From Plantactinospora sp. GCM10030261 (lineage in GTDB: Bacteria > Actinomycetota > Actinomycetes > Mycobacteriales > Micromonosporaceae), in assembly GCF_042666615.1 (NCBI RefSeq), contig NZ_JBHTDD010000005.1, positions 80,997 to 144,996 on the forward strand: DNA of 64,000 bases, given 5' to 3'. Every line of letters starts with the position of its first letter. Position 1 is the first letter of the stretch. Shown in pieces: positions 8,806 through 38,298 of this stretch. Position numbers and translations under genes: made by a program. Under the pieces are notes generated by a model, which saw nothing but the letters and a program-made list of their open reading frames with translations, did no database searches and had not been told where the DNA came from.

Positions 8806-9183
8806 ATGGAATACGTGGGAACTGCGTTGGCCGAAATGACTATGCCTCAGATCTCGCCGCTCGCCGGCGAGCCGATCGAACGTGCCGACGCCGAGCGACT
8901 GGCGGGAGTGCTCAAGGCACTCGCCGACCCGGCTCGGCTGCGGCTGCTCAGCCTCATCCAGTCGGCCCCCGAGGGCGAGGCGTGCGTGTGTGACCTCACC
9001 GCGCCGCTGGGCCTCTCCCAGCCGACGGTGAGCCACCACCTCCGCATCCTCACCGAAGCGGGCCTGCTCGAGCGGGAAAAGCGTGGTGTGTGGGCCTACT
9101 ACCGGCTGGTGCCGACGGCGATCGCGACGATCGCCGATCTGCTCACCCCGCCGCGCAAGCGCGCCACCAAGAAGGCTCGCTGA
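8806..9183 (+). CDS. ArsR/SmtB-family metalloregulator-like transcriptional regulator
   Basis: Winged HTH 'LKALADPARLRLLSLI...CVCDL...LSQPTVSHHLRILTEAGLL'; the CVC metal-site residues are typical of the ArsR/SmtB family. Confidence 0.85.
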   Translation: MEYVGTALAEMTMPQISPLAGEPIERADAERLAGVLKALADPARLRLLSLIQSAPEGEACVCDLTAPLGLSQPTVSHHLRILTEAGLLEREKRGVWAYYRLVPTAIATIADLLTPPRKRATKKAR

Positions 9184-10163: not shown

Positions 10164-11093
10164 TCATGCCCCTGAGCGGGGATCCGAGTCCGCGACATCG
10201 CCCGCCGCCCGCCGCAGCCGACGACGCTCGACCATGATCATCGTTATGACCAGGGACATGCCCACGATGACGAGCAGTGCCACGATCGGCACGTTGCCGC
10301 CCGGCGCCTGGAGGGCTCGGTCGTCAGTCTGCCAAGGCCACAGGGCACGCAGACTGCCGACAATCACACCGGTCATCACCGCCAGAGTCATCCGCCGGTG
10401 TCGGTCGAGCAGCCACTGCAACGTCTTGACGAAGAGTGCCAGCCCGATGACCATGCCGGCGGCGAAGATCGCCAGGTAGCCGAAGTCCCGGTCGTTGACG
10501 GCGCTGATCGTCGGCTCGTAGAGGCCCAGGGTGAGCAGCAGGAACGATCCGGAAACTCCCGGCAGCGCCAGAGCGCATACCGCCAGGGCGGCGGCGAGCA
10601 ACACGACCACTGGCTTCGGTGTCACCGAAGCCGGGGGCAGGCCGGTCAACACGAAGGCTCCCACCGCGGCGGCGAGCGAAGCGGCAACCTCGCCACCCCG
10701 CCACCGCCTGCCGACCATCGCGATCGGCACCAGGATCGAGGCGAGCACCAGCCCGAAGAACAACCCCCGGGTCTGCTGCGGGTAGTCGTGCAGCATCGGC
10801 TCCAGCAGTCGCGCCGCCAGCAGCAGGCCCGGCACCATGCCGAGGACGAGGGGAATCAGCACCACCCAGTGCGCTTGGCGCAGTTCATGCGTGACCCGCG
10901 TCCAGCCGCGCCCCCGCAGCCCGTCCGAGGCGGTGAACCGAACCGCATTCACCAGGTGACCGGCAGACTCGATGAGCCGCTCGTACACACCGGTGACCAG
11001 GGCGATGGTGCCGCCGCTGATCCCGGGTACGGCTTCGGCCACGCCGATGGCCGTCCCCCGGAAGACATGGCCGATGCGCTCGCCTGCTGCCAT
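10164..11093 (-). CDS. DUF368-family integral membrane protein
   Basis: 'GISRSG-like' motif 'VPGISGGTIALVTG', then a second half-repeat 'LPGVSGSFLLLTLG'; polytopic. Confidence 0.8.
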   Translation of the reverse strand: MAAGERIGHVFRGTAIGVAEAVPGISGGTIALVTGVYERLIESAGHLVNAVRFTASDGLRGRGWTRVTHELRQAHWVVLIPLVLGMVPGLLLAARLLEPMLHDYPQQTRGLFFGLVLASILVPIAMVGRRWRGGEVAASLAAAVGAFVLTGLPPASVTPKPVVVLLAAALAVCALALPGVSGSFLLLTLGLYEPTISAVNDRDFGYLAIFAAGMVIGLALFVKTLQWLLDRHRRMTLAVMTGVIVGSLRALWPWQTDDRALQAPGGNVPIVALLVIVGMSLVITMIMVERRRLRRAAGDVADSDPRSGA

Positions 11094-11295: not shown

Positions 11296-13821
11296 TCAGA
11301 GCCGCGGGTCGACCGGCTCCGACTCACAGGCCAGGATCGCGAAGACCAGTTCGTGCCGCCGCCACAGCGGCGCGCCCTCGGTCAGTCCGTCCAGCGCCGC
11401 CAGGCCCAGCCCGTGTTCGCGCAGCGCGAGACCGCGCTTGCGTCCCAGCGACCTGCCACGGAGCGCGGCGAGCTGGTCGGGCCGGTCGTACTCGGGACCG
11501 TAGATGATCCGCAGGTAGTCCCGGCCCCGACACTTGATGCCCGGCTGCACCAACCGGCCATTCCCGTCGGTCGCGGCCAGGCCGGCGTACGGCTTGACCA
11601 CCATGCCCTCGCCGCCGGCCGCGGTCAGCGCCAGCCACCACTCGGTCGCGTCCGTCACCGCACCGGAGTCGGCGAGATCCACCACCCGCCGGTCGGTCCG
11701 GGTGATGAACTCGGGGTCGGCCTCTCGCAGCCGGTCGGCCAGCGCGAGATGCCAACCGTGATCCCGACCGGTGTGTGCCGCCCCCGCGCTGGCCAGCACC
11801 GCGAACGGCGCAAGCGTCACCCCGGTCAGCCCGTCCGTCGGCCGAACGTACGCCCGGTACGCCACGGCATACCGGGCCAGATCGTCGGCGCGTCGGGTCA
11901 TCCGGTCCCGAAGCTCGGCCACCGGCAACCCACGGTCCGCGGCTGCGGACAGGGCGGCCAGCGCGGCCGGCAACGCGGCGCCCCCGGCGGCGGCCACCGG
12001 GGCGTACTGCTCGCGGATCAGTCCGGTCGCCTTGGCCGACCAGGGCAGCAGTTCACAGTCCAGCAGCAGCCAGTCGGTGTTCAACTCGGTCCACAGGCCC
12101 GCGCGGTCGATGGCTGATCGCACCCGGTCCACAAGCGCGGACCCCAGCGGCTCGGCGAACACCGGCCGGCCGGTCCGGGTGTACGCCACGCCACCGCCCG
12201 CGCCGAACCTCGCGTCGGCGGAATCCCGGCACACGAGCAGCACGGCGCGGGAGCCCATGTGCTTCTCCTCGCACACCACCCGATCCACCCCGGCCGCCCG
12301 GTAGTCGGCGAACGCGTCGGCCGGGTGCTCCAGGAAGCCGTCCACGGTCGCCGTCGAACACGGCGCCATCGTCGGCGGCAGCCACACCAGCCGGTGCGGG
12401 TCGACCGCGAACCGGCTCATCACCTCCAGGGCGGCCGCGGCGTTCTCGGCCGGCACGGTCAGCCGGCCGTACCGGTGCTCGACGTGCCGGCGGCCCGTGA
12501 CATCCGCGAGGTCCAGCACGTCCGCCGGGCGCTCGGGCGCCGGCACGACGAGCGGCCGGGCCGGCGGGTAGTACTCCTTCGCGGCCGGCACCGACACCAG
12601 GTCCCGTTCCGGGTAACGCAGGGCGGTCAACGAGCCGCCGAAAACGCAGCCGGTGTCGATGCAGATGGTGTTGTTGACCCACTCGGGTGTCGGCGTCGGG
12701 GTGTGCCCGTAGACCACGGTGGCCGAACCACGATAGTCACGGGCCCACGGGTAGCGGACCGGAAGGCCGTACTCGTCGGTCTCACCGGTCGTCTCGCCGT
12801 ACAACGCGAAGGCCCGGACCCGTCCGGACGCCCGCCCCTGGTATGCCTCCTTCAGCCCGGCGTGGGCCACCACCAGCCGGCCACCGTCCAGCACGTAGTG
12901 GCTGACCAGGCCGTCGATGAACGTCTCCACCCCGGCGACGAACTCCGGTGGCTCGGTCGCCAACTGGGCCAGCGTCTCGGCCAGGCCGTGGGACACCGTG
13001 ACCTTGCGGCCGCGCAGCTTGCGTACCAGCTTCTGCTCGTGGTTGCCCGGCACGCAGAGCGCGGTGCCGGCGGCGACCATGCCCATCACCAGGCGCAGCA
13101 CCCCCGGCGAGTCCGGGCCGCGGTCCACCAGGTCGCCCACGAAGATCGCGGTACGCCCCAGCGGGTGCGTCGCGTTGACCGGCCTGCCGGTGGCGTCCCG
13201 GTGCACCGTCCAGCCCAGCCGTTCTAGCAGCGCCTCCAGTTCGGCCCGGCAGCCGTGCACGTCACCGACGATGTCGAACGGGCCGGTCAGCTCCTTGCGG
13301 TCGTTGAACAGCCGCTCGTAGTGGATCTCGGTCGCGTCGATCTCGGCGGGGCCGCGCAGCACGTGCACCTTGCGGAAGCCCTCACGGGCCAGCCCGGACA
13401 GCGACCGGCGCAGGTCGCGGTGCATCCGGTGCAGAACCTGCCGGCCGAACGGACGGTCGGCGCGGGCCTCGGTCCGCTCCCAGCACAGCGGCTCGGGCAC
13501 GTCCAGCACGACCGCGACCGGCAGCACGTCGTGCTCCCGGGCCACCGCGACCAGGCCGGCCCGGGCGTGCGACTGGAGATTCGTCGCGTCGACCACCGTC
13601 AGCCGGCCGGCCCGCAGCCGCTTGCCGGCGACGTAGTGCAGCACGTCGAAGGCGTCGGCGGAGGCCGACTGGTCGTTCTCGTCGTCGGCGACCATCGCCC
13701 GGAACGCGTCCGAGGAGAGCACCTGGCTGGGCCGGAAGTGCCGCCGGGCGAATGTGGACTTACCCGACCCGGAGATGCCGACGAGGGCCACCAGCGCCAG
13801 CTCCGGAATGTCGATCCGCAT
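11296..13821 (-). CDS. pnkp: Polynucleotide kinase-phosphatase-ligase (bacterial Pnkp, RNA repair)
   Basis: N-terminal P-loop kinase 'GISGSGKSTF'; central calcineurin-like phosphoesterase motifs 'GDLVDRGPDS' and 'GNHE'; C-terminal adenylyltransferase-type ligase domain with 'EEKHMGSR'. 841 aa, the same tri-domain order as Clostridium thermocellum Pnkp. RBS 'AAGGGGG' before the ATG. Confidence 0.85.
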   Translation of the reverse strand: MRIDIPELALVALVGISGSGKSTFARRHFRPSQVLSSDAFRAMVADDENDQSASADAFDVLHYVAGKRLRAGRLTVVDATNLQSHARAGLVAVAREHDVLPVAVVLDVPEPLCWERTEARADRPFGRQVLHRMHRDLRRSLSGLAREGFRKVHVLRGPAEIDATEIHYERLFNDRKELTGPFDIVGDVHGCRAELEALLERLGWTVHRDATGRPVNATHPLGRTAIFVGDLVDRGPDSPGVLRLVMGMVAAGTALCVPGNHEQKLVRKLRGRKVTVSHGLAETLAQLATEPPEFVAGVETFIDGLVSHYVLDGGRLVVAHAGLKEAYQGRASGRVRAFALYGETTGETDEYGLPVRYPWARDYRGSATVVYGHTPTPTPEWVNNTICIDTGCVFGGSLTALRYPERDLVSVPAAKEYYPPARPLVVPAPERPADVLDLADVTGRRHVEHRYGRLTVPAENAAAALEVMSRFAVDPHRLVWLPPTMAPCSTATVDGFLEHPADAFADYRAAGVDRVVCEEKHMGSRAVLLVCRDSADARFGAGGGVAYTRTGRPVFAEPLGSALVDRVRSAIDRAGLWTELNTDWLLLDCELLPWSAKATGLIREQYAPVAAAGGAALPAALAALSAAADRGLPVAELRDRMTRRADDLARYAVAYRAYVRPTDGLTGVTLAPFAVLASAGAAHTGRDHGWHLALADRLREADPEFITRTDRRVVDLADSGAVTDATEWWLALTAAGGEGMVVKPYAGLAATDGNGRLVQPGIKCRGRDYLRIIYGPEYDRPDQLAALRGRSLGRKRGLALREHGLGLAALDGLTEGAPLWRRHELVFAILACESEPVDPRL

Positions 13822-13879
13822 TATGAGCCCCCTTTCGTTCGCGACTGCGGGGCTCGCAAACCCGGCTCACTCCTCGCGC

Positions 13880-15352
13880 TCACGGTGAGCCCCCTTCCCG
13901 GATGAACGTGGCGAGCTGGGTGGAGCAGCCGACCTCGGGATCCTCGTCGCCGACACCGGACCGGGTTACCCGGTAGCCGTGTGCGTCGGCCACCCGGTCG
14001 GTCCACGCCGCGAACTCGGCGCGGGTCCACTCGAACCGGTGATCCGAGTGGCGCAGCCGCCCCGCGGGCAGACCCTCGTACCGGACGTTGTACTCCACGT
14101 TGGGGGTCGTCACGATCACCGTTCCCGGTCGGGCGTGACCGAAGACCGCGTCCTCCAGCGCCGGTAGCCGCTCCGCGTCCAGGTGTTCCACCACCTCCAT
14201 GAGCACCGCGGCGTCGTACCCCCGGAGGCGGTCGTCGCGGTAGGTGAGCGCCGACTGCCACAGCTTGATCCGGTCCCGCTGGCGCTGCGGCAACCGGTCC
14301 AGGCGAAGCCGGCGCTCGGCCATGGCGAGCGCGCCGACGGACACGTCGGTGCCGACGATCTCGGTGTGCCGCCGCTCGGCGACCAGGTCGACCAGCAGCG
14401 CGCCGCCGCCGCAGCCCAGATCCAGCACGCGGCTCGCCCCGACCCGGGCCAACTCGGCGAGTACGGCTCGCCGGCGGTGCACCGCGAGCGGCTGCCGGCG
14501 CACCGCCTCCGGCAGTTGAGCGTCCTCGTCGCCCGGTCGCTCTCCGGCAGCCGGATCCGGGTCGACGGAGTCCGGATCGGCCGCGTCGTCGGCTAGCCGC
14601 AGCTCGGCCAGCCGGCGCTCGTCGAGCTGGGCCAGCGCCCTCCCGGCGAGGGCCCGGCGGTGCACCAGGTATCGCCGGGCGATCAGGCCACGCTGTGGAT
14701 GGCTGGCCAGCCATCCCTCACCGGCCCGCAACAGCTTGTCGATCTCGTCGGGGGCCACCCAGTAGTGCTTCGCGTCGTCAAGCACCGGCAGCAGCACGTA
14801 CACCTGATTGAGGGCGTCGGCGAGCCGGATGACGCCGCGCAGGGTCAGGTCGACGTACCGGCTGTCCCCCCAGTCCGGTCGCCGCTCGTCGAGGGGGACC
14901 GGCGTCGCGGTCACCGTCCAGCCGAGCGGTCCGAACAGCGACTCGGCCAGGGCCGAGCCACCGCGGCAGCGCAGCGCGGGAACCTGGATCTCCAGGGGGA
15001 TGGTCGCCGCGACCAGCTCCGGCCGGTCCCTGGACGCGCCGCGCAGCGCCGATCGGAACACCTTGGACAGCGCGGAGGCGAGCAGGCTGGAGGCCGCGTA
15101 CGGGCGGTCGTTGACGTACCGGCCGAGGGTGAAGTCGGCCGGGGTGGTCCGCCGGTTACGGCCGCCGGCCAGCCGTCGCGGGTCCACGTCGAGCAGCAGG
15201 GCGGCCGTGCAGCGGTCCGCCGCCGCCTCCGGGTAGAAGACGTGCGCGGTGCCGGTCGGCACGTCGAACGTGTGCACCCGGTCGGGGTGCTTCACCAGCA
15301 GGTAGCCAAGGTCGGTGGCCGGCCGGTGGGTGGTGGTGACGGTGAGCAGCAC
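13880..15352 (-). CDS. hen1: 3'-terminal RNA ribose 2'-O-methyltransferase Hen1 (bacterial)
   Basis: N-terminal 'LLTVTTTHRPATDLGYLLVKHP' is the bacterial Hen1 N-domain; the C-terminal SAM-MTase carries 'VLDLGCGGGALL' and 'AVLMEVVEHL'. The gene lies directly upstream of pnkp. The ORF extends to 15409 (TTG), but the GTG at 15352 is the more plausible start. Confidence 0.8.
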   Translation of the reverse strand: MLLTVTTTHRPATDLGYLLVKHPDRVHTFDVPTGTAHVFYPEAAADRCTAALLLDVDPRRLAGGRNRRTTPADFTLGRYVNDRPYAASSLLASALSKVFRSALRGASRDRPELVAATIPLEIQVPALRCRGGSALAESLFGPLGWTVTATPVPLDERRPDWGDSRYVDLTLRGVIRLADALNQVYVLLPVLDDAKHYWVAPDEIDKLLRAGEGWLASHPQRGLIARRYLVHRRALAGRALAQLDERRLAELRLADDAADPDSVDPDPAAGERPGDEDAQLPEAVRRQPLAVHRRRAVLAELARVGASRVLDLGCGGGALLVDLVAERRHTEIVGTDVSVGALAMAERRLRLDRLPQRQRDRIKLWQSALTYRDDRLRGYDAAVLMEVVEHLDAERLPALEDAVFGHARPGTVIVTTPNVEYNVRYEGLPAGRLRHSDHRFEWTRAEFAAWTDRVADAHGYRVTRSGVGDEDPEVGCSTQLATFIREGGSP

Positions 15353-15479
15353 CTGATCATGATGGCAGCAACCGCGGGTCCCGCGCCGCCCGGTTTGGCC
15401 GGACGACAACGCCGGAGGGGCCCCTTATCGACGCATAGCGATGATAAGAGGCCCCTCCGGGCGATCCATCCGCCGTGGA

Positions 15480-17042
15480 TCAGGCCACGAACCGGGTACG
15501 CCGACGGCGGGCCAGCACGAATCCGGCGGCCCCGGCGGCGAGCAGCACAACGCCCACCCCCACGACGACGCCGGTGGACGAGCCGGTGATGGGCAGGGTG
15601 CCGCCCCCACCCGAACCGCCGTCGTCGGTCGGGTTCACCAGGAGTTGGGCGACGTCGTTGGTCCGGTTCGGGTCCCCGTCGAACCGCCCGTCACAGTCGC
15701 ACCTGGCGTTGGCCCTGACCTGGCCGGTCGCGTCGGGCACGACGGTGTCGATCCGCAGCTTGAAGTCGATCGTCTCGACCTGACCCACCCCCAGGTACGG
15801 ACCGGAGCCGCAGAAGTAGGTGGGGACGCTCGGCTTACCGGCCAGGTCCCAGGCGCTGTCACCCGGCCTCAGCAGGTAGCAGTTCTCCGGCGCCGCCGTC
15901 ACGGAGGTACCGGCCGGCACGCTGACCGTGTAGTAGGTGGCCGGCAGGGCGGCGTCCAGGGCAGCGGGACCGTTGTTGCCGACGCCGACCTTCGCGGTGA
16001 CCACGTCACCCGCCTTGCCGGTCACGGCGGTCCCGATGGCGTACAGGTCGGCGGGGTTCTTCCCGGTCACCGTGACCATCATGTATCCCCAGTTGTTGTA
16101 CGGCTCGGTGTCCGCCTGGAACGAGGCCCGGGCGCGGGCGGCGGCCAACGTCAGCGTCCCGCCGGTGCCCGGCTTGCCGAAAGTGTAGCCCCGGCTCCTG
16201 GAGTAAGCCTCGTAGTCCTCGAACTCCGCAAGCGTGAACAGGCCATGCTGCCCGTAGACCTCACCCGGCGCGAGGGTGTCCGCCCGCAGCCGGTAGGGCA
16301 GTGCGGCGCTGTACGCGGCACCCGGTGCCAACTCCTGGTCGAAGCGGCAGGAGCGCAGCACGTTGTCCTCGTAGGTGCAGTTGCTGTACTGCTGACCGGC
16401 CTCGACGGCGTGTTCGGCGTGGAAGACGACGACCAGACCCTGCACGGTGGTGGTGCCGGCGTTTACCACGTTGACCGGAGACGTGAACGCCTTCCCAGGC
16501 GTCGCGCTCGACTCGTACCACTCGGCTTCGTCCCCGGTCTGACCGGTGGAGAGGTCGACGCCCTCGCCGACGCGGACCTTCGCCCGGTGACTGACCGTCG
16601 CGTAGCCCGCGGAGCCGAAGGTCACGGTGATGGTGCCGGTGTCGCCGTCCTTCGCCGTGTCCTTCGGCGTGATGAACAGCGGCGCGAGCCCGATGGCCCC
16701 CCACTCGTCCAGGTTGGTCGGATCGTCGATGGAGCAGCGGATGATCTTCCCTGTCGTGGTGCAATCCCCGGAGTCGTCGGCCTTAGCGCTGACCGTCGAC
16801 GGCAAGTCGCCGAGGTCGTACGTCACAGTGATTCCGTTCAGCACGACCGGCTTCGAGGCCGACAGGATCGGAAACTCGATCCTGCCCTCCGACTTCTCGG
16901 CGATGGTCGTGTCCCGCAGGTAGACGCCGAGCTTGGCGTCGTCGTCCGCCAGGGCGGGCGAAGCGGTGGCGGCGACGAGTGCGCCGACGGCACCGACCAC
17001 GCCAAGTCCGGCGAGCAGCCGCCGGACAGGCTTGATCCGCAT
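15480..17042 (-). CDS. Secreted cell-wall-anchored surface protein (LPXTG-type sorting signal)
   Basis: Signal peptide 'AVGALVAATASPALA/DD'. The C-terminus has 'LPITG', then a hydrophobic stretch and 'RRRRTRF'. The body looks like a beta-rich adhesin. Confidence 0.75.
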   Translation of the reverse strand: MRIKPVRRLLAGLGVVGAVGALVAATASPALADDDAKLGVYLRDTTIAEKSEGRIEFPILSASKPVVLNGITVTYDLGDLPSTVSAKADDSGDCTTTGKIIRCSIDDPTNLDEWGAIGLAPLFITPKDTAKDGDTGTITVTFGSAGYATVSHRAKVRVGEGVDLSTGQTGDEAEWYESSATPGKAFTSPVNVVNAGTTTVQGLVVVFHAEHAVEAGQQYSNCTYEDNVLRSCRFDQELAPGAAYSAALPYRLRADTLAPGEVYGQHGLFTLAEFEDYEAYSRSRGYTFGKPGTGGTLTLAAARARASFQADTEPYNNWGYMMVTVTGKNPADLYAIGTAVTGKAGDVVTAKVGVGNNGPAALDAALPATYYTVSVPAGTSVTAAPENCYLLRPGDSAWDLAGKPSVPTYFCGSGPYLGVGQVETIDFKLRIDTVVPDATGQVRANARCDCDGRFDGDPNRTNDVAQLLVNPTDDGGSGGGGTLPITGSSTGVVVGVGVVLLAAGAAGFVLARRRRTRFVA

Positions 17043-22863: not shown

Positions 22864-25035
22864 TCACAGTCCCTCGGCCACCGCCGCGGCGATCTTCAGC
22901 CAGGCGTCCTTGGTCGCCGACGACAGGCTGCCGTAGCGGAGCGGCTCCCCGGTGTCGATCGACCGCTCGTACGGGGCAAGCAGCACCGCCCGGGTCCGGG
23001 CGGCGAAGTGCCGCTGGATCGGTGGCAGGTCGATCTCCTTGCTGGAGGGCGGCATGGAGACCACGGTGACCGCCTGCCGGACGAGCCGGTGCCGACCGCT
23101 CTGCTCCAGGTGGTCGAGCATCCGCGCGGCGGTCTCGGCCGAGTCGTTCCGGGCCGACATGGTGATCAATAGTTGGTCGGTGGCGTCGATGGCGGCCTGC
23201 CAGTTCTGCGCCCGCACGTTGTTCCCCGTGTCCACGAAAATCAGTTTGTAGAACCGGCTGACCACCTCGCGGATCTCCGCGAACGCGTCGGCGGTCAACA
23301 TCTCACCACCGGTGGCCGACTCGTCCGAGGCCAGCACGTCGAACATGCCCGCCCCCTGCGCCCGGACGTACTGCGACAGGTCACCGATCCGGCCGTGCGC
23401 CCCCTGGAACTGTCCCAGGTCGCGCAGCAGGTCGCGCACCGTGCGGTGGTGGAAGTCCTGCTGCGCCCGCATGCCGAGGGTGCCCTGGGTCTCGTTGTTG
23501 TCCCAGGCCAGCACGTAACCGCCGCGCTTCTGCCCGAACGTCATGGCGAGCAGCAGGATCGCGACGGTCTTGCCGGCACCGCCCTTCGGATTGACAACGG
23601 TCACCTGACGCAGGCCGCCGAAGTTGCGGCGGACCATCTCGACGTCCTGTCGAATCTCCTGCTCGTGGCGGCTGGGCGCCAGCCGCACCAGGCCAAGCTT
23701 GTTGACCACCGCCCGGACGCCCATCTCGGCCACTGGCTCGGCGGGCTTGGCGGCCCGGCGGCGGGCGAACTCCTCGGCGGTGGGCACCGACGGGTCGGGC
23801 GCCCACGGCTGCTCGTCGTAGACGTCCGGGGTCGCCGGCCGGCCCTGCGTCTGCGGGTACGCCCACTGCGGCGCCGGCCCGTGGTTGACCTGTGGCTGGT
23901 TGACCTGCGGTGGATGGCTGACCGGTGGATGGTTCACCTGCGGGTGGCCGTACTGGGTGGCCGGCGGGCCACCGTGCGCGCCCCACACCGGTGGGGTCGG
24001 AGGTGGTTGCTGCGCCCCCCAGCCACCCTGGTTGGGTGGGGCGGTCATCGGCCCCGGCGGAGGTGGACCGGGCACCCGCGCCTGTCCCATCGACGGACCG
24101 GGCGGAGCGGGTGTCGACGTACGCGACGGCGGCTGCGCCCACGGCGAGACCGGCTCCCCCATCCGGGGGCCTTCGTCGGGGCTGGGGTCGGCCGTCGACC
24201 CGTCCCGGGCCGAGACATCGTCGCGCGGCTCCGGCGCGCTCTTGGAGACGGGGGCGTCCGGATGCGACTCGGTCCGGTCACCCGACTCGGTGACGGCCGG
24301 ATCAAGGGTGAACGGCTCGTCCAGGTCCACCCCGGCCGAGCCGCCACGGTCGTCCGGGCCGTTGCCGTCGCGATCGTCCCCGTCGCCGATCGTCGGGCCG
24401 GCCTCCGCCGCCGACTGAGGTGCGCCGCGACCGTTCACGATCGGCCAGGCGCGGGTCGGCAGGTCGGCCGCGACGGACTGGGGCGGGACGTCCGAGTCGG
24501 CCGGCGTCATGTCGTCCGGTACGCGTGGCACGTCGACCGGTGGGCGTGGTGAGTTCACCGGCGGCTGTGGTGGGCCGAACGGTGTCTGGGTCGGCTGGAA
24601 CGGCGGCTGCGGCGGGACGACCGGATGCTGAGCCGGTCCGCCGTGCACCGGCGGCTCCGGCGGCCGGACCGGCGGCTGAGCCGTGATCCACGGCGGCAGC
24701 GGCTGAGTCGTCGCCCAGCTGGGCCGCTCGGTCGAACTCTGCTGCGGGGGCGGCGAAACCGGCGACCGGGAGACCGGATCCGGTCCCGGTTCCGGCTCGG
24801 GAGGCGGAGTGGGCGCGGCCGCGTTGGCGAGCCGTTGCGCGGCCGTGGTGATCTGAGTCCGCGGTCCGCGGTGTTCGGCCGGCTCGTGGTCCGGTGGCGG
24901 GGCCTGCTGGATCCACGGTGGGATCGGCAACTCCTCGCGCGGCGCCGACGTGCCGCCCTGCTGCGCGGCCTGTCCTTCCTCGGCCGGCAGGTGAGTTCCG
25001 TCCCTGTCCTCGTGCACCACAGATACCTCCCCCAT
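22864..25035 (-). CDS. ParA/MinD-family ATPase with ~400-aa Pro-rich N-terminal low-complexity region
   Basis: Deviant Walker A 'NPKGGAGKTV' in the C-terminal ~300 aa; the N-terminus is PPxP-rich ('HPPVSHPPQVNQPQVNH'); RBS GAGGAG. Confidence 0.8.
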   Translation of the reverse strand: MGEVSVVHEDRDGTHLPAEEGQAAQQGGTSAPREELPIPPWIQQAPPPDHEPAEHRGPRTQITTAAQRLANAAAPTPPPEPEPGPDPVSRSPVSPPPQQSSTERPSWATTQPLPPWITAQPPVRPPEPPVHGGPAQHPVVPPQPPFQPTQTPFGPPQPPVNSPRPPVDVPRVPDDMTPADSDVPPQSVAADLPTRAWPIVNGRGAPQSAAEAGPTIGDGDDRDGNGPDDRGGSAGVDLDEPFTLDPAVTESGDRTESHPDAPVSKSAPEPRDDVSARDGSTADPSPDEGPRMGEPVSPWAQPPSRTSTPAPPGPSMGQARVPGPPPPGPMTAPPNQGGWGAQQPPPTPPVWGAHGGPPATQYGHPQVNHPPVSHPPQVNQPQVNHGPAPQWAYPQTQGRPATPDVYDEQPWAPDPSVPTAEEFARRRAAKPAEPVAEMGVRAVVNKLGLVRLAPSRHEQEIRQDVEMVRRNFGGLRQVTVVNPKGGAGKTVAILLLAMTFGQKRGGYVLAWDNNETQGTLGMRAQQDFHHRTVRDLLRDLGQFQGAHGRIGDLSQYVRAQGAGMFDVLASDESATGGEMLTADAFAEIREVVSRFYKLIFVDTGNNVRAQNWQAAIDATDQLLITMSARNDSAETAARMLDHLEQSGRHRLVRQAVTVVSMPPSSKEIDLPPIQRHFAARTRAVLLAPYERSIDTGEPLRYGSLSSATKDAWLKIAAAVAEGL

Positions 25036-30854: not shown

Positions 30855-30953
30855 GCCCGCCCCCCGCCAATCCTCGACCCGCCCGCCCACGACGAGCCCG
30901 CGCACCGTGTGGGTTCGGCGAACCCGTGCCGTCCAATGAGACCCGAAGGGAGG

Positions 30954-33014
30954 ATGCGTGGCCCGCCCGCCGGCCGCGCAACTCACATGGATGTCATCTC
31001 CACCGGCCTCGGCGTCCTGCTCGCCGTCGTCCTCCTCATCGTCATCGTCCTGGCGATCATGGTCAGCCGACTCTTCAAGAAGGTCGAGCAGGGCAAGGCG
31101 CTGATCGTCTCGAAGGTGCGCCGGGTCGACGTGACCTTCACCGGTGCCGTCGTGCTGCCGGTCCTGCACAAGGCCGAGGTGATGGACATCTCGGTCAAGA
31201 CCATCGACATCGAGCGGTCCGGGCACGATGGCCTGATCTGCCGGGACAACATCCGCGCCGACATCAAAATCACGTTTTTTGTCCGGGTCAACAAGACCGT
31301 CGAAGACGTGATCAAGGTGGCACAGGCGATCGGTACCGCGCGGGCCAGCGACCAGCAGACCCTCCAGGCGCTGTTCAACGCGAAGTTCTCGGAGGCGCTG
31401 AAGACGGTCGGCAAGCAACTCGACTTCGTCGACCTCTACACCAAGCGGGACGAGTTCCGGGATCGGATCATCCAGGTCATCGGCACCGACCTCAACGGTT
31501 ACAGCCTCGAAGACGCGGCCATCGACATCCTCGAGCAGACCCCGCTCGACCAACTCGACCCGCGAAACATCCTCGATGCCCAGGGCATCCGAAAGATCAC
31601 TGAGCTGACCGCGGCCGAGCACGTGCGCACCAACGAATACCGGCGCAGCGAGGAGAAGGAGATCACCCGGCAGAACGTCGACGCCCGGGAGGCCATCCTG
31701 GAGCTGGAGCGGCGGGAGGCCGACGCGGAGGCGAAGCAGCGCCGCGAGGTCGAGACGATGCGGGCCCGCGAGGAGGCCGAGACCGCCCGGGTGCAGGCGG
31801 AGGAGCGGCTCAAGTCCGCCAGCGCGAACATCCGGACCGACGAGCAGTTGGGTATCCAGCACGAGAACCGCGCCCGGGAGATCGCCGTCGCGGAGAAGAA
31901 CCGGGAACGGGTCATCGCCATCGAGACCGAGCGGATCGAGAAGGACCGCATGCTCGAGGTGATCGGCCGGCAGCGGGAGACCGAACTGTCCACGATCGCC
32001 AAGGACAAGGAGGTCGAGGCCGAGAAGCGGGCGATCGCCGAGGTGATCCGGGAGCGGATCGCGGTCGAGAAGACCGTGGCCGAGCAGGAGGAGAACATCA
32101 AGCGCCTGCGGGTCGTCGAGGAGGCCGAGCGGACCCGCCAGGCGGTGGTCATCCAGGCCGAGGCCGAGGCCCAGGAGAACCTGGTCAAGGACATCAAGGC
32201 GGCCGAGGCGGCCGAGGCGGCGGCCAAGCACAAGGCCCGCGAGGAACTCGTGCTGGCCGAGGCCCGGCAGCAGGCGGCGGAGCTGGAGGCCCGGGCCAAG
32301 ATCCGGTTGGCGGAAGGCGTCCAGGCCGAGGCCGCGGCGAGCGGGCTGGCCGACGTCCAGGTCAAGGAGCGCAGCGCCGAGGCGATCGAGAAGGTCGGTC
32401 GCGCCGAGGTGGCCGTCGAACGCGAGCGTGCGATCATCGCCGCCGAGGCGGTCCGCGAGAAGCTCAAGGGCGAGGCGGAGGGCCTCACCGAGAAGGCCGC
32501 CGCGATGGCGGCGCTGGACGACGCGACCCGCGAGCACGAGGAGTACCGCATCCGGCTGGAAATGGAGAAGGAGGTCCGGCTCGCCGGCATAGATGTCCAC
32601 CGGCAGGTCGCCGAGGCACAGGCCATGGTGGTCTCGGCCGGTCTCGAGAAGGCGAACATTGACATCGTCGGCGGCGACAGCGTCTTCTTCGACAAGCTGC
32701 TCGGCTCGATCACGCTGGGCAAGAGCGTCGACGGGTTCATGAACCACTCGGACACCGCGCGTGGGCTCGCGAAGCCGTGGCTCGACGGAAGCTCGTCGTT
32801 CACCGACGACCTGACCAGAATGCTCGGCTCGATGGGCACCGCCGACATGCAGAACCTGACGATCTCGGCCTTCCTCCTCCAGCAGATCAAGGCGGGCGGG
32901 GCCGAGACGTCGGGCAAGCTGCGCGAACTGCTGGACGCGGCGCGGCGCCTGGGCGTTGCCGACGCGCCGCTGGCGGCCCTGACCGGAAACCGCGCGGTCC
33001 GGGCGGGTGAGTGA
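30954..33014 (+). CDS. Flotillin-family SPFH (band-7) protein, YqiK-like
   Basis: RBS 'GGGAGG' before ATG 30954; N-terminal TM helix; SPFH domain 'ALIVSKVRRVDVTFTGAVVLPVLHKAEVMDISVKTIDI'; long EA-rich coiled coil, C-terminal flotillin tail. Confidence 0.9.
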   Translation: MRGPPAGRATHMDVISTGLGVLLAVVLLIVIVLAIMVSRLFKKVEQGKALIVSKVRRVDVTFTGAVVLPVLHKAEVMDISVKTIDIERSGHDGLICRDNIRADIKITFFVRVNKTVEDVIKVAQAIGTARASDQQTLQALFNAKFSEALKTVGKQLDFVDLYTKRDEFRDRIIQVIGTDLNGYSLEDAAIDILEQTPLDQLDPRNILDAQGIRKITELTAAEHVRTNEYRRSEEKEITRQNVDAREAILELERREADAEAKQRREVETMRAREEAETARVQAEERLKSASANIRTDEQLGIQHENRAREIAVAEKNRERVIAIETERIEKDRMLEVIGRQRETELSTIAKDKEVEAEKRAIAEVIRERIAVEKTVAEQEENIKRLRVVEEAERTRQAVVIQAEAEAQENLVKDIKAAEAAEAAAKHKAREELVLAEARQQAAELEARAKIRLAEGVQAEAAASGLADVQVKERSAEAIEKVGRAEVAVERERAIIAAEAVREKLKGEAEGLTEKAAAMAALDDATREHEEYRIRLEMEKEVRLAGIDVHRQVAEAQAMVVSAGLEKANIDIVGGDSVFFDKLLGSITLGKSVDGFMNHSDTARGLAKPWLDGSSSFTDDLTRMLGSMGTADMQNLTISAFLLQQIKAGGAETSGKLRELLDAARRLGVADAPLAALTGNRAVRAGE

Positions 33015-36000
33015 GCCGGTGACCGCCGCGCAGCCGCGACCCGGTGCCGGTCCGGTGACGCCCGCCGGGGGCGCAGCCGGTCCGGCGCCGGACGCCGGCA
33101 CAGCTGCTGGTCCGGTGACGCCCGCCGGGGGCGCTGCCGGTCCGGTGACGGACGCCGGCACCGCAGCCGGCCCGGGGCTGGACGCCGGCAGCTACGAGGT
33201 GCTCCGGACCCGACTCGCCGACCGGGCCGCCGAACTGGCCCGCCGGGCGGATCGGCTGAACGCGGACCGACTCGCCGTGTTCGGTGGCACCGAACTGCGA
33301 CTGCTGGGCACCGAGCGGATTCGCACCAGACACAACTGCGTGCCTCGGGACATCGTGCCGATCGGCGGGCTGATGCTGTTCGGCTACAACGTCTTCATCG
33401 GTCTCAAGCCGGAGACGGAGGTCGACGACGTCTTCTCCCTGCACCGTTTTGTGCGGGAACCGGCCGAGGGCGGTCAGCCCGCCGACGGTGCCGGTCGACC
33501 GGCCGACGGTGCCGGTCGACCGGCCGACGGTGATGGTCAGCCCGCTGACGGTGCCGGTCGACCGGCCGGGAACAGCGGCGAGGACACCTTCCGGTTCGCC
33601 GACGTGCCGGCCGACGACCTGCCCGAGCTGCTCCGCGACCCGCAGTTCCGCCGCGACTTCGCCGAGCTGTACCGCTACTACCGGCAGACCCGGCTGCTGC
33701 AACTGCGCCGCTTGGGCGGTCGCCTGCTGGCGGTCTTCGCCACCGGCGAGCGGGCCGACGACATCCGGGTACTGCGCTGGCGGATCGGCACCGACGGCTC
33801 CGTCGAATACCTGGACAACCGGGGCGAGCGGGAGCACGTCTTCCCACCCGCTCATGACTTCGAGTGGATCGAGACGACCCGGGAAGACCACGTCCTCGGT
33901 CGGCATCCGCACGTCTCCATTCAGGGCAAGGTGTTCGTCGAGACGGTCGGGGGAACGCTTACCGTCAAGGTGGAGGACAACACCGAGTCCGGCGAGGGCA
34001 TCTACACCGAACCGGTCGACGAACCGTTGCAGAGCCTCGCCGACTCCGACATCCACTACGCGCCGGTCGGGCCGCTGATCCTGATGCGGCTGCGGCCGTA
34101 CCGGGAAACCACCTGGCGTCACCTGGTTTTCAACACCCTGACCAACGACGTCGTGCGGCTGGACGGGATAGGGACAGCCTGCCAGCGCCTGCCCGAGGAC
34201 CAGGGGATCATCTTCCCGGGCGGCTACTACCTGACCACCGGCGCCCGGCGCACCTTCGACACCGACGTGACCGACCTGGAGTTCGAGGGGGCCATCCGGT
34301 CCAGCAACGGCGAGGACGTGCTGTACGTCTTCCACGCCCGCGCTGAGGGTCGGTCGCTGCTGTTGCCGTACAACATGATTCGCAAGGAGGTCGGGACGCC
34401 GATTCCCGGGCACGGCTACTCGCTGTTCGAGGACGGCACGCTTGTCGTGTTCCGGGCCACGTCGGAGGAACCGACCCGGGTCCATCCGATGCAGATCTGG
34501 CAAACCCCGTACCTGTCCGAGAGCTACGCCGCCGCACAACCCGTCGGCACCGGGCCGCTGGAACGGGTCGGCAACGCCGATCTCGTCCGCGGCATCTCCG
34601 ACTGCCTGTCGGTGGCGCGCATGGTGGACGAGATGAGCCCGGCCGCGCCGGTCTTCGAGGCGTTGATCGCGGCCTGCGCACGGGCGTTCGACCACTACCA
34701 CTGGTTGGCGGACGAGGAGTTCGGGCGGCTCGCCGAACCGCTGACCGAGGTGCGGGCCACCGCCCAACAGGTGCTTGACGAGTTCGAGAAGGTCCAGTCG
34801 CTCACCGCGCACGCCAACGCCCAGGTGGACGAGGCGGAGGAGCGGATCGGCGCGCTGGTCCGGCGGGCCCACGGAGCCACCCCGCTCACCGCCGACGAGT
34901 GGATCCGGCAGCTCGCGGCGCTCCGTCAGGAGCAGGGCCACCTGGTCACCCTGCGGGAGTTGCGGTACGTCGACGTCGACCGGCTCGCCGGGCTGACCTC
35001 CCGGCTGGACGGGGAGCTGGACACCACGGGCCGCCGGGCGATCGAGTTCCTGCGCCGGGACGACGCGTTCGCCGGCTACGCGACCGAGGTGGACCGGCTG
35101 GCCACCGAGGCCAAGGAGATCGGAACGGCGGCCGAGGCCGGCCCGATCGCCGAGCGATTGGCCGAACACACCGCCGGCCTGCAGACGGTCACCGACGTGG
35201 TGAGCACGCTGGACATCGGCGACGCGACCGTTAGGACCGGCATCCTGGCCCGGGTCGGTGAGGTGCTCGGCGGCGTCAACCGGGCCCGTGCCCAGCTCGA
35301 CGCCCGCCGCCGGGATCTGCTCGCCGCCGAGGGACGGGCCGGGTTCGCGGCCGAGTTCGCGCTGCTCGGCCAGGCGATCACCGGAGCCCTGGCGGCGGCC
35401 GACACCGCCGAGAAGTGTGACGAGCAGCTCGGGCGGCTGCTGCTGCGGGTGGAGGACCTGGAATCCCGGTTCGCCGACTTCGACGACTTCCTGGCCGAGC
35501 TGGCCACCCGGCGTACCGACGTCTACGAGGCGTTCTCGGCCCGCAAGCAGACCTTGCTGGACGAGCGGGCCCGCCGGGCGGACCGGCTGGTCTCCTCGGC
35601 GGACCGCATCCTGGTGAGCGTGCAGCGGCGGCTGGCCGGGCTGCGCTCGCTCGACGAGGTGAACACCTACTTCGCCGGCGATCCGATGATCACCAAGCTG
35701 CGCTCGGTGGTCGAGGAACTGCGTACCCTGGGCGACCCGGTCCGGGCCGCGGAGCTGGACGGCCGGATCGGCGCCGCCCGGCAGGAAGCCGGGCGGGCCC
35801 TGCGGGATCGGCTCGACCTGTACTCCGACGGCGGCGCCACCGTGCGGTTGGGGCGGCACCGGTTCCCGGTCAACTCCCAACCCGTCGACGTCACGCTGAT
35901 CCCCCAGGACGGGCGGATGACGGTGGCGGTCACCGGAACCGACTACCGGGTCCCGGTCCGCGACGGGGTCCTGGACGGCGGCCGGGAGTTCTGGGACCAG

Positions 36001-38298
36001 CTTCTCGTCTCGGAGTCGCCGGAGGTCTACCGGGCCGAGTTCCTGGCCACCGCCATCCTGGCGGACGCCGAGGTCGGTCGGGATGGGCCGGACCTGGACG
36101 CGTTGCACCAGGCGGCCGTCGATCCGGACGCGTTGCGGGAGCTGGTGCGGGCGACGGCCGAGACCCGGTACGACGAGGGCTACGAGCGCGGCGTGCACGA
36201 TCGGGACGCCGCCGAGATCCTCGCCGCGCTGCTCCGCATGCACGCCGGCGTCGGGCTGCTCCGCTACCCGCCAGCCGCCCGCGCCGCGGCTCAACTGTTC
36301 TGGAGTCACGGCGCCGACGAGTCGGCCCGGACCGGCTGGGCGATGCGGGCCACCTCGCTGGCCCGGGCCCGGGCCCGGTTCGGTCGCCGCGCCGGCACGG
36401 CGGCGGCCCTCGACGAGTTGCACGCCGAGCTGGGTGGCGGCATCGATGAGTTCCTGCGCGATGCCGGCCTGCCCGGGCCGGCGGCCGAACACCGGCTGGC
36501 CGGGGAGTACCTGGCCGAGGAGCTGGCGCAGGCGCCGCCGGGCTTCGTCACCAGTGCCGGTGCCCGCGAACTGCTCCGCCGGTTCCGGGCCGCGCTGGGT
36601 GGCCCGCAGGCGCCGGCCGCCAAGGAACTCGGCGACGACCTGCGGGCCCTCGGTGACGACCTGGCCGCCCGGCACCAACTGGTCGAGGCGTGGCTCTCCG
36701 CCTTCCTGGCCGAGGCCGGGGCGGCCGGCACCGAGGCGGGTTCGGCCGGTGGCGAGGCGGGTTCGGCCGGTGGCGAGGCCGGCGCTGCGGACAGCAGCGC
36801 GGCCAGCGCGGTCGACCTCCCGGAAGCCGTGGCGATCGAAGTCTGTGGCGCCGGTCTGCCGCGGCACGATTCGGCCGCGACCCGCACCGAGACGGTGGGT
36901 GGGCTGCTCGGCGCCCATCCCCGGATCACCGGCTCGGCGCTGACCCTGCGGTTGGACGAGGTGCTTGCCCGAACCCGACGGTTCCGGGTGGAGCGGGTGC
37001 CCGCCTATCGGGAGTACCAGCGGCGGCGCAACGATCTGGTGGCGACGGAACGGGACCGGCTGCGGCTCGCCGAGTACCGCCCCAAGGTGATGAGCGCGTT
37101 CGTCCGCAACCGGCTGCTGGACGAGGTCTACCTGCCGTTGATCGGCGACAACCTGGCCCGCCAGCTCGGCTCGGCAGGCGACGGCGAGCGGGTCGACCAG
37201 ATGGGCCTGCTGTTGCTGATCTCGCCGCCGGGCTACGGCAAAACCACCGTCATGGAGTACGTCGCCAGCCGGCTCGGCCTCGTCTTCGTCAAGGTGAACG
37301 GGCCGGCGCTCGGCTCGGGGGTGACCTCGGTGGACCCCGCCGAGGCGCCGAACGCGACCGCGCGACAGGAGGTGGAGAAGATCTCCTTCGCCCTGGAGTG
37401 CGGCAGCAACGTGCTGCTCTATCTGGACGACATCCAGCACACCTCGCCGGAGCTGCTACAGAAGTTCGTCTCGCTGTGCGACGCGCAGCGCCGGATGGAG
37501 GGCGTCTGGGACGGCCGCACCCGCACGTACGACCTGCGCGGCAAGCGGTTCGCGGTGTGCATGGCCGGAAACCCGTACACCGAGTCGGGGCAGCGGTTCC
37601 GGGTGCCGGACATGCTCGCCAACCGGGCCGACGTGTGGAACCTCGGTGACGTGCTGGCCGGCCGGGAGGAGGTGTTCGCGCTGAGTTATCTGGAGAACGC
37701 GCTGACGTCGAACCCGGTGCTCGCGCCCGTGGCCGGACGGGAACGCGGCGACATCGAGTTGCTGGTCCGGATCGCCCGGGGCGACGGGTCGGTGCGCGCG
37801 GACCAGCTGGACCACCCGTACTCGCCGGTGGAACTCGAACAGATCGTCTCGGTGCTGCGCAAGCTGATCCGGGTGCAGCAGGTCGTGCTGGCGGCCAACC
37901 AGGCGTACATCGCCTCTGCCGCCCAGGCCGACGCGTCCCGTACCGAACCGCCGTTCCAGCTCCAGGGTTCGTACCGGAACATGAACAAGATGGCCGCCCG
38001 GATCGTCCCGGTGATGGACGACGAGGAACTGGAGGCGTTGATCGACGACCACTATGTCGGTGAGGCGCAGACCCTGGCCGCCGGCGCCGAGGCGAACCTG
38101 CTCAAGCTCGCCGAGTTGCGTGGCCGGCTCACCGACGAGCAGGCCCGACGGTGGGCCGAGGTGAAGGCCGGCTTCCTGCGGGCCAAGGCGCTCGGCGGTT
38201 CGGGTGACGACCCGGTGGACCGGGCGGTCGGCGCTCTGGGCCTGCTCGCCGACCGGGTCGGCGCCGTCCAGACCGCCATCGAACGCGCCGCCCGGTAA
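33007..38298 (+). CDS. 1763-aa giant protein: repeat-rich disordered N-terminus, ~1100-aa helical body, single C-terminal MoxR/AAA_5-like AAA+ ATPase domain
   Basis: The GTG start overlaps the flotillin stop by 8 nt. Tandem repeats 'PVTPAGGAAGP' (~33060-33180), 'ADGAGRPADGAGRP' (~33475-33570) and 'GSAGGEAGSAGGEAG' (~36750-36790). Walker A 'LLLISPPGYGKTT' (~37220), Walker B 'VLLYLDDIQH', and 'CMAGNPYTESGQRFRVPDMLANRAD' (sensor/Arg-finger-like, as in MoxR). Confidence 0.8.
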   Translation: MSEPVTAAQPRPGAGPVTPAGGAAGPAPDAGTAAGPVTPAGGAAGPVTDAGTAAGPGLDAGSYEVLRTRLADRAAELARRADRLNADRLAVFGGTELRLLGTERIRTRHNCVPRDIVPIGGLMLFGYNVFIGLKPETEVDDVFSLHRFVREPAEGGQPADGAGRPADGAGRPADGDGQPADGAGRPAGNSGEDTFRFADVPADDLPELLRDPQFRRDFAELYRYYRQTRLLQLRRLGGRLLAVFATGERADDIRVLRWRIGTDGSVEYLDNRGEREHVFPPAHDFEWIETTREDHVLGRHPHVSIQGKVFVETVGGTLTVKVEDNTESGEGIYTEPVDEPLQSLADSDIHYAPVGPLILMRLRPYRETTWRHLVFNTLTNDVVRLDGIGTACQRLPEDQGIIFPGGYYLTTGARRTFDTDVTDLEFEGAIRSSNGEDVLYVFHARAEGRSLLLPYNMIRKEVGTPIPGHGYSLFEDGTLVVFRATSEEPTRVHPMQIWQTPYLSESYAAAQPVGTGPLERVGNADLVRGISDCLSVARMVDEMSPAAPVFEALIAACARAFDHYHWLADEEFGRLAEPLTEVRATAQQVLDEFEKVQSLTAHANAQVDEAEERIGALVRRAHGATPLTADEWIRQLAALRQEQGHLVTLRELRYVDVDRLAGLTSRLDGELDTTGRRAIEFLRRDDAFAGYATEVDRLATEAKEIGTAAEAGPIAERLAEHTAGLQTVTDVVSTLDIGDATVRTGILARVGEVLGGVNRARAQLDARRRDLLAAEGRAGFAAEFALLGQAITGALAAADTAEKCDEQLGRLLLRVEDLESRFADFDDFLAELATRRTDVYEAFSARKQTLLDERARRADRLVSSADRILVSVQRRLAGLRSLDEVNTYFAGDPMITKLRSVVEELRTLGDPVRAAELDGRIGAARQEAGRALRDRLDLYSDGGATVRLGRHRFPVNSQPVDVTLIPQDGRMTVAVTGTDYRVPVRDGVLDGGREFWDQLLVSESPEVYRAEFLATAILADAEVGRDGPDLDALHQAAVDPDALRELVRATAETRYDEGYERGVHDRDAAEILAALLRMHAGVGLLRYPPAARAAAQLFWSHGADESARTGWAMRATSLARARARFGRRAGTAAALDELHAELGGGIDEFLRDAGLPGPAAEHRLAGEYLAEELAQAPPGFVTSAGARELLRRFRAALGGPQAPAAKELGDDLRALGDDLAARHQLVEAWLSAFLAEAGAAGTEAGSAGGEAGSAGGEAGAADSSAASAVDLPEAVAIEVCGAGLPRHDSAATRTETVGGLLGAHPRITGSALTLRLDEVLARTRRFRVERVPAYREYQRRRNDLVATERDRLRLAEYRPKVMSAFVRNRLLDEVYLPLIGDNLARQLGSAGDGERVDQMGLLLLISPPGYGKTTVMEYVASRLGLVFVKVNGPALGSGVTSVDPAEAPNATARQEVEKISFALECGSNVLLYLDDIQHTSPELLQKFVSLCDAQRRMEGVWDGRTRTYDLRGKRFAVCMAGNPYTESGQRFRVPDMLANRADVWNLGDVLAGREEVFALSYLENALTSNPVLAPVAGRERGDIELLVRIARGDGSVRADQLDHPYSPVELEQIVSVLRKLIRVQQVVLAANQAYIASAAQADASRTEPPFQLQGSYRNMNKMAARIVPVMDDEELEALIDDHYVGEAQTLAAGAEANLLKLAELRGRLTDEQARRWAEVKAGFLRAKALGGSGDDPVDRAVGALGLLADRVGAVQTAIERAAR

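Follow-up and report, generated by a model that had tools for sequence, protein, structure and literature searches.

A 64-kb stretch of DNA from Plantactinospora sp. GCM10030261 (Micromonosporaceae), referred to here in its full length as the window, very probably carries a chromosomal Hen1-Pnkp cassette for RNA repair, canonical and intact, with two genes. As judged from sequence, the cassette consists of two open reading frames (ORFs) co-oriented on the minus strand, one at 11296-13821 (841 amino acids, ATG start) and the other at 13880-15409 (509 amino acids when read from a TTG); an initial annotation had placed hen1 followed by pnkp at 11296-15409, and both frames were found there. We make this assignment because both proteins match the corresponding equivalog models over their full length and show the matching Pfam architecture, because all of the catalytic residues that were checked are conserved, because each domain shares 50-66% identity with its Clostridium thermocellum domain structure, including the 4drf/4e6n complex and the Hen1 methyltransferase structures from Anabaena and C. 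thermocellum, and because the genes are adjacent, co-oriented and arranged with hen1 first, as in Anabaena. The assignment also draws on selection, since pairwise ratios of nonsynonymous to synonymous substitution (dN/dS) against five Micromonosporaceae orthologues were 0.21-0.34 for both genes (values that are probably overestimated because the G+C bias at third codon positions, GC3, constrains synonymous sites), and on the public record, since both proteins bear these names in NCBI.

The mechanism of Pnkp-Hen1 and its heterotetramer have been described (PMC3675462 and PMC4411300), and in vitro reconstitution succeeded on a ribotoxin-cleaved tRNA (PMC4411300). By homology to the C. thermocellum and Anabaena proteins (4drf/4e6n), the two proteins of the window would form a Pnkp2-Hen1-2 complex that heals breaks in RNA whose ends bear a 2',3'-cyclic phosphate and a 5'-OH. 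The phosphatase domain of Pnkp would remove the cyclic phosphate, the C-terminal domain of Hen1 would methylate the 2'-OH of the 3'-terminal nucleotide with Mn2+ and S-adenosylmethionine, the kinase domain of Pnkp would phosphorylate the 5'-OH, and the ligase domain of Pnkp, adenylylated on K520, would seal the ends only if activated by the N-terminal domain of Hen1. The junction would stay 2'-O-methylated, so that the same nuclease could not cut it again. It is by analogy with these systems that we infer the enzymatic activities, the formation of the complex, co-transcription across the 58-nucleotide (nt) spacer between the genes and the in vivo substrate.

Domains and active sites of the two proteins

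Profile searches for the Hen1 N-terminal domain and the Pnkp ligase detected both domains together with the ligase motifs, upholding the identity of the cassette. Hen1 matched the NCBI equivalog model TIGR04074 (bacter_Hen1) with 656 bits against a cut-off of 340, over model positions 1-461 of 462. In the Pfam scan, it matched Hen1_L (PF12623; 372.7 bits, E = 8e-112, model positions 1-241 of 242) and, in its C-terminal part, S-adenosylmethionine-dependent methyltransferase families. Its N-terminal domain matched the C. thermocellum Hen1-N chain of the Pnkp-ligase/Hen1-N complex (4dqz/4drf; E = 4e-75), and its methyltransferase domain matched the Anabaena and C. thermocellum structures 3jwh and 3jwg (E = 3e-60 and 8e-58), in agreement with the initial description of a ligase-activating domain followed by a methyltransferase. 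Pnkp matched TIGR04075 (bacter_Pnkp, also an NCBI equivalog) with 1346 bits against a cut-off of 750, residues 1-841 aligning to model positions 1-851. Its Pfam order was AAA_33 (residues 10-136), Metallophos (181-376) and PNKP_ligase (463-836; PF16542, 537 bits, E = 3e-161, model positions 1-377 of 377), and its kinase, phosphatase and ligase domains matched the C. thermocellum structures 4gp6 (E = 9e-54), 4j6o (E = 4e-108) and 4drf (E = 7e-121), respectively. The motifs GSGKST (residues 18-23), GDLVDRG (at 229), GNHE (at 259) and KHMGSR (at 520) were located, and thus all three domains and the motifs of the 841-residue kinase-phosphatase-ligase first described (GSGKST, GDxxDRG/GNHE and a C-terminal ligase) were recovered.

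The proteins of the window were then mapped onto the C. thermocellum sequences to locate the catalytic residues. The ligase motif I lysine, K520 in KHMGSR, aligned with K531 in KHMGSR of C. thermocellum, reportedly the site of adenylylation. In Hen1 (490-residue numbering), the motifs DLGCGGG (D311), EVVEH (E386, E389 and H390) and HRFEW (H438) aligned to 3jwh, and these residues lie at a uniform offset of +20 from D291, E366, E369, H370 and H418 of the C. thermocellum protein, which are said to be the ligands of S-adenosylmethionine and metal. The phosphatase residues D187, H189, D230, R234, N260, H261, H320, H373 and D389 correspond to C. thermocellum D187, H189, D233, R237, N263, H264, H323, H376 and D392; apart from H189 and R237, these reportedly belong to a list of metal-ligand and phosphate-binding residues from mutagenesis in the Shuman laboratory. 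The roles of H189 and R237 (C. thermocellum numbering) are described in PMC3675462. The kinase residues K21, S22, D38, R41, R116, R120 and R123 were conserved at the same positions as in C. thermocellum, and PMC3902929 gives Asp38 as the general base of the C. thermocellum enzyme.

The coordinates of these features are collected in Table 1. Residue 20 of the 509-residue ORF is where the Hen1 hidden Markov model and the alignments to homologues set in, and the 490-residue form is an exact match to the NCBI deposit WP_377439631.1, with the 509-residue form absent from the same protein collection; the most likely start codon is the GTG at 15352. Pnkp shares 100% identity with the NCBI entry 'polynucleotide kinase-phosphatase [Plantactinospora sp. 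GCM10030261]'. Both proteins stand under these names in NCBI, and therefore the pair is already correctly annotated publicly; it is a textbook case that matters little beyond annotation.

Table 1. Features of the hen1-pnkp locus in the window (positions are those of the window).
Feature	Coordinates	Strand	Basis and remarks
hen1 coding sequence	13880..15352	-	490 amino acids, GTG start; open frame reaches TTG at 15409; TIGR04074, 656 bits
Hen1 N-terminal ligase-activating (Pnkp-binding) domain	14624..15352	-	PF12623 and 4dqz/4drf matches
Hen1 C-terminal 2'-O-methyltransferase domain	13892..14509	-	3jwh/3jwg matches and motifs
hen1-pnkp spacer, 58 nt	13822..13879	-	Read directly in the sequence
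pnkp coding sequence	11296..13821	-	841 amino acids; TIGR04075, 1346 bits, end to end
Pnkp 5'-OH polynucleotide kinase domain, residues 1-168	13318..13821	-	4gp6 match
Pnkp 2',3'-phosphatase (binuclear metallophosphoesterase) domain, residues 171-421	12559..13311	-	4j6o match
Pnkp C-terminal ligase (adenylyltransferase) domain, residues 463-836	11314..12435	-	PF16542 and 4drf matches
Hairpin, 18-bp stem, putative terminator of the upstream gene	15412..15460	-	RNA fold z-score -5.6

Like the cassettes of C. thermocellum and Anabaena variabilis, that of the window joins a ligase-activating and a methyltransferase domain in Hen1, and kinase, phosphatase and ligase in Pnkp, with the checked catalytic residues conserved and the genes co-oriented with hen1 first. 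It differs from them in its host, a high-G+C actinomycete (72% G+C; the window itself is ~71% throughout), in its 58-nt spacer with a ribosome-binding site of its own, where most loci are tight or overlapping, and in being a chromosomal locus that is syntenic across the family, but none of these is a difference in kind.

Distribution, neighbourhood and role of the cassette

The genome scan for Pnkp relatives returned at least 591 confirmed relatives. Dozens of Micromonospora and Plantactinospora species, as well as related genera, have Pnkp homologues with 75-83% identity, and the flanking genes and orientation of the Micromonosporaceae orthologues are the same as in the window; the Pnkp of Micromonospora aurantiaca is the actinobacterial representative in PMC3675462. 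The conserved order reads fbaA, a holin-like gene, an ECF sigma factor gene, a variable gene for an LPXTG-type protein, hen1, pnkp, and genes for DedA, ArsR, a phosphoribosyltransferase (pyrE-like) and an SDR protein. This synteny is kept across Micromonospora, Plantactinospora, Actinoplanes, Pseudosporangium and others, and not in Nocardia or Streptomyces. Such family-wide synteny argues against a purely sporadic, mobile distribution in the Micromonosporaceae, where Hen1-Pnkp behaves as a stable chromosomal gene pair; the sporadic distribution first ascribed to the system does not describe this family, in which it is widespread, and may hold globally. As far as dN/dS tells, both hen1 and pnkp are under purifying selection in the Micromonosporaceae.

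The wider neighbourhood is of a housekeeping kind (clpB, spermidine synthase, purA, purD and fbaA). Pfam scans of ~30 neighbouring ORFs, covering 1-40 kb of the window, returned only housekeeping, membrane, sigma-factor and unknown proteins, and no toxin-antitoxin, integrase or defence genes were detected within ~20 kb on either side. Against PADLOC-DB 2.0, Pnkp had no match, and Hen1 had only a generic match of its methyltransferase region to mad2 (E = 2e-11, residues 295-415). No Rfam element was found at E <= 0.1 between positions 9000 and 19000, and no tRNA gene in the 64-kb window. The system was present in 28 of the 72,556 plasmid records (nearly full-length in 16), one plasmid copy adjoining AbiE toxin-antitoxin and IS3 genes, and a full-length copy was absent from 50,697 phage records. 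The initial annotation had called the system a hallmark of toxin and phage conflict; this may describe it globally, and the plasmid copies, including the one beside AbiE, are consistent with it, but the surroundings of the present locus hold no toxin or phage context within ~20 kb.

These observations bear on the role of the cassette. It is quite conceivable, if somewhat against our expectation, that the same biochemistry serves a housekeeping role, i.e., the vertically inherited, core-genome repair of RNA damaged by the cell's own nucleases or by stress, and not a mobile counter-defence against ribotoxins triggered by phage or released by competitors. The position of the pair, the same from fbaA to the SDR gene across genera, points in this direction, as do the purifying selection on both genes, the surroundings of clpB, purA, purD and fbaA with no toxin, integrase or defence genes, the lack of any PADLOC model matching Pnkp and the lack of a full-length copy among the phage records. 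Elsewhere, however, the cassette is found on plasmids and megaplasmids, beside AbiE toxin-antitoxin and insertion sequence (IS) elements, and a pair of Hen1 and a Pnkp-type ligase occurs on a viral contig, which fits a conflict-related, mobile history. Moreover, a conserved position alone does not reveal the source of the RNA damage, and the toxin screen covered ~40 kb of the genome. We hold as a tentative proposal, a shade more doubtful than the housekeeping role itself, that Hen1-Pnkp is a fixed, vertically inherited core function in the Micromonosporaceae for endogenous RNA damage, with the 58-nt spacer perhaps a small regulatory variant; if such a core function is real, genetically tractable Micromonospora species could serve well in the search for the in vivo substrate.

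A main substrate other than cleaved tRNA anticodon loops, such as rRNA, mRNA or DNA ends, appears improbable for the cassette. Even for the model systems, the Discussion of PMC4411300 gives the in vivo substrates as unknown, and the lack of tRNA genes and known RNA elements near the locus is in keeping with such a view. Against it, the substrate repaired successfully in vitro was a ribotoxin-cleaved tRNA (PMC4411300), and the methyltransferase is by family an enzyme of the RNA 3'-terminal ribose.

The junction between hen1 and pnkp and the order of the genes

Some observations weigh against a canonical, intact Hen1-Pnkp cassette in this strain. The Pfam scans found no cognate ribotoxin within ~20 kb on either side, and a promoter scan with an E. 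coli-type consensus, which is weak for Actinobacteria, found no match upstream of hen1. In addition, the 58-nt spacer of the window stands where 29 of 31 Micromonosporaceae relatives have a stop/start overlap; with the overlap lost, translational coupling, and perhaps the 1:1 stoichiometry of the two proteins, may therefore differ. As a counterpoint, pnkp has its own Shine-Dalgarno-like site, AAAGGGGG at 13835-13828, 6 nt before its ATG (13821).

The length of the spacer was given as 58 nt at the outset, and the same figure was measured between the hen1 TGA (13882-13880) and the pnkp ATG. For the comparison of junctions, the hen1 of each relative was extended to its stop codon and the pnkp start was then located. 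A 4-nt overlap of stop and start (ATGA/GTGA) was present in 27 of 28 Micromonosporaceae loci, and among the three closest relatives it was present in two, with an 82-nt spacer in the third. In the Nocardia loci (n = 3), hen1 and pnkp abut (0 nt), one Catellatospora locus has 116 nt between them, and in the broad metagenome set, for which the pnkp starts were estimated more roughly, the median junction was -4 nt and most genes overlapped. Other intact cassettes (loci L022 and L166, and Nostoc) have spacers of 62-116 nt. Given the overlap in most relatives and the 62-nt spacer of Nostoc, the 58-nt spacer is thus a minority but recurring state. The C-terminal tail of Hen1 is short in the window and hypervariable in the Micromonosporaceae, and since tail and junction vary in this way even among the closest relatives, homology across the junction is untraceable. 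The predicted RNA fold of the spacer is ordinary (z = -1.1). A direct repeat of 9-12 nt, GAAGGGGGCTCA / AAAGGGGGCTCA, at 13886-13897 and 13824-13836 (minus strand), lies on either side of the hen1 stop and the spacer; an origin of the spacer as a duplication of the hen1 3' end was unsupported, as this flanking repeat was all that was found and the interior does not align. We regard the spacer as a minor local oddity, of specialist interest in that the tight stop/start overlap of the family is absent from this strain.

Speculatively, the spacer could have been created by a one-base frameshift in a G-run that uncoupled the genes. The +2 frame of the spacer is open and terminates in a TAATG that overlaps the pnkp ATG, the switch of frame could sit in the G-run at 13890-13894, and most relatives have the overlap. 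A one-base change there would, as read from the alignments, cost Hen1 only a non-conserved tail. It is highly unlikely, on the other hand, that such a frameshift at the hen1 3' end marks a cassette that is decaying or non-functional in this strain: the match to the Hen1 model reaches position 461 of 462, so that only the hypervariable tail would be affected, the catalytic residues are all intact, pnkp keeps its Shine-Dalgarno-like site, at 72% G+C chance alone often leaves a frame open for 20 codons, and longer spacers are found in the intact cassettes named above.

We examined the order of the two genes in 80 loci from actinobacterial genomes, for which the ligase domain was the query, and in 80 metagenome and 2 viral loci, a phylogenetically broad set with a G+C of 37-72%. 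In 79 of the 80 actinobacterial loci, hen1 lies upstream of pnkp on the same strand; the remaining locus is a 4.6-kb contig in which hen1 was not detected in the ~2 kb upstream of pnkp. Upstream of pnkp is also where hen1 lies in all 57 of the 82 metagenome or viral loci that carry both genes, including the closest metagenomic relatives of the C. thermocellum cassette. Among the 25 loci of that set with no detected hen1, 21 hold <=835 nt of sequence upstream of pnkp, and the sequence downstream of pnkp, up to 8 kb, is free of hen1 in all of them. The order pnkp before hen1 was met in 0 of 136 informative loci. Two annotated plasmid records agree, that of Nostoc cf. commune having hen1 and then pnkp with a 62-nt spacer, and that of Deinococcus gobiensis plasmid P2 having hen1, two nucleotidyltransferase genes and pnkp. 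In the literature, both Anabaena variabilis genes are in one operon with Hen1 synthesized first (PMC4411300, legend to Supplementary Fig. 3), and the legend to the C. thermocellum cassette in PMC3675462 names 'Hen1 and Pnkp' as adjacent co-oriented ORFs.

Overall, hen1 upstream of pnkp is the canonical order for Hen1-Pnkp. The initial annotation had held that the characterised operons run from pnkp to hen1; this is contradicted by the Anabaena legend, by 136/136 loci and by the Nostoc and Deinococcus records, and with hen1 first in every informative locus the novelty that was claimed is therefore mistaken. A rearranged variant, with hen1 moved upstream relative to the characterised operons and perhaps a different regulation or assembly, is scarcely credible in the face of these loci, records and legends, and nothing was found in its support, the spacer that is atypical for the family being a matter of spacing and not of order. 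An unusual gene order was rejected, and the "inverted order" is not worth pursuing as a novelty.

The unit appears to be bounded on its 5' side by the hairpin of Table 1, which lies between the stop (15480) of a 520-residue LPXTG-type gene and the hen1 start (15352). It is a near-perfect 18-bp inverted repeat that forms a highly stable stem and whose arms match only each other within the window, and the region 15353-15482 folds with a z-score of -5.6, a stability that none of 200 shuffles reached. The promoter and terminator consensus scan, which uses a sigma-70/E. coli-type consensus that is weak for Actinobacteria, gave no matches; the hairpin has no U-tail, which accounts for the silence of the terminator scan. 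The hairpin is probably the terminator of the upstream LPXTG-type gene, and as such it would mark a 5' boundary that sets hen1-pnkp apart as its own unit.

Variant cassettes and neighbouring genes

The Pnkp1-Rnl-Hen1 system of Capnocytophaga gingivalis resembles the cassette of the window in that it heals, 2'-O-methylates and seals, with a related ligase and Hen1. In that organism, Rnl is a separate protein, Pnkp1 is of the T4 type and hen1 lies ~55 kb away (PMC4411300), whereas in the window the ligase is fused to kinase and phosphatase and hen1 is adjacent, an arrangement other than the three-component one. The match of the window Hen1 to the Hen1 chain of 4xrp was weak (E = 8e-7).

Extended cassettes, with genes of the RlaP family (PF10127) or Thg1-like genes between hen1 and pnkp, have the same order of hen1 and pnkp as the window; no RlaP or Thg1-like sequence was found anywhere in the 64 kb, and no accessory gene stands between hen1 and pnkp. 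One or two RlaP-family nucleotidyltransferase genes lie between hen1 and pnkp in loci L118 (5803-6579), L151 (2060-3840), L120, L121, L160 and L115, and an RlaP-family insertion is present at the same place in L169, the D. gobiensis plasmid P2 (1252-2957). RlaP is a known RNA-ligase-associated family (bioRxiv 10.64898/2025.12.29.696909). In the metagenome locus L099 (2625-3825), a small AAA_33 kinase and a Thg1-like tRNA-His guanylyltransferase (PF04446 and PF14413) lie between the two genes; genes like these also occur in L123, L160 and L162, and the protein P0201 looks like a Thg1 C-terminal domain fused to a PNKP-type ligase.

Reduced forms were also seen. On a 50.9-kb predicted viral contig (L162, 6615-9041; IMGVR_UViG_3300002461_000623), a divergent Hen1 (Hen1_L and methyltransferase, ~28% identity) is followed by a stand-alone PNKP-type ligase of 351 amino acids that has no kinase or phosphatase domain, a pair that may represent the repair module in phage-borne form. 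L163 (3679-7464), from a Pseudobacteroides sp. metagenome-assembled genome, has a T4 Rnl1-type RNA ligase gene and a kinase/HD gene, and directly downstream of them come a 43-residue Hen1_L fragment and a ligase-only Pnkp remnant of 487 amino acids, as if a Hen1-Pnkp cassette had decayed next to an RNA repair pair of another kind. The Pnkp-like genes of L112 and L158 match from ~residue 320 of Pnkp, with the kinase and the beginning of the phosphatase missing, and that of L104 is full-length; no hen1 was found within 6.6-7.6 kb upstream in these three loci, which may be Hen1-less variants.

Among the other genes of the window, large ORFs with coding-like GC3 were noted at 33007-38298 (plus strand, 1763 amino acids), 22864-25035 (minus strand, 723 amino acids) and 30909-33014 (plus strand, 701 amino acids), of which the 723- and 701-residue ORFs had no Pfam match. 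Directly downstream of pnkp, at 10164-11093 (minus strand), lies a gene for a membrane protein similar to VCA0040 and to undecaprenyl-phosphate translocases (PF04018); among the syntenic Micromonosporaceae loci it is present only in the window and in L012, and it is thus a variable insertion in an otherwise conserved neighbourhood.

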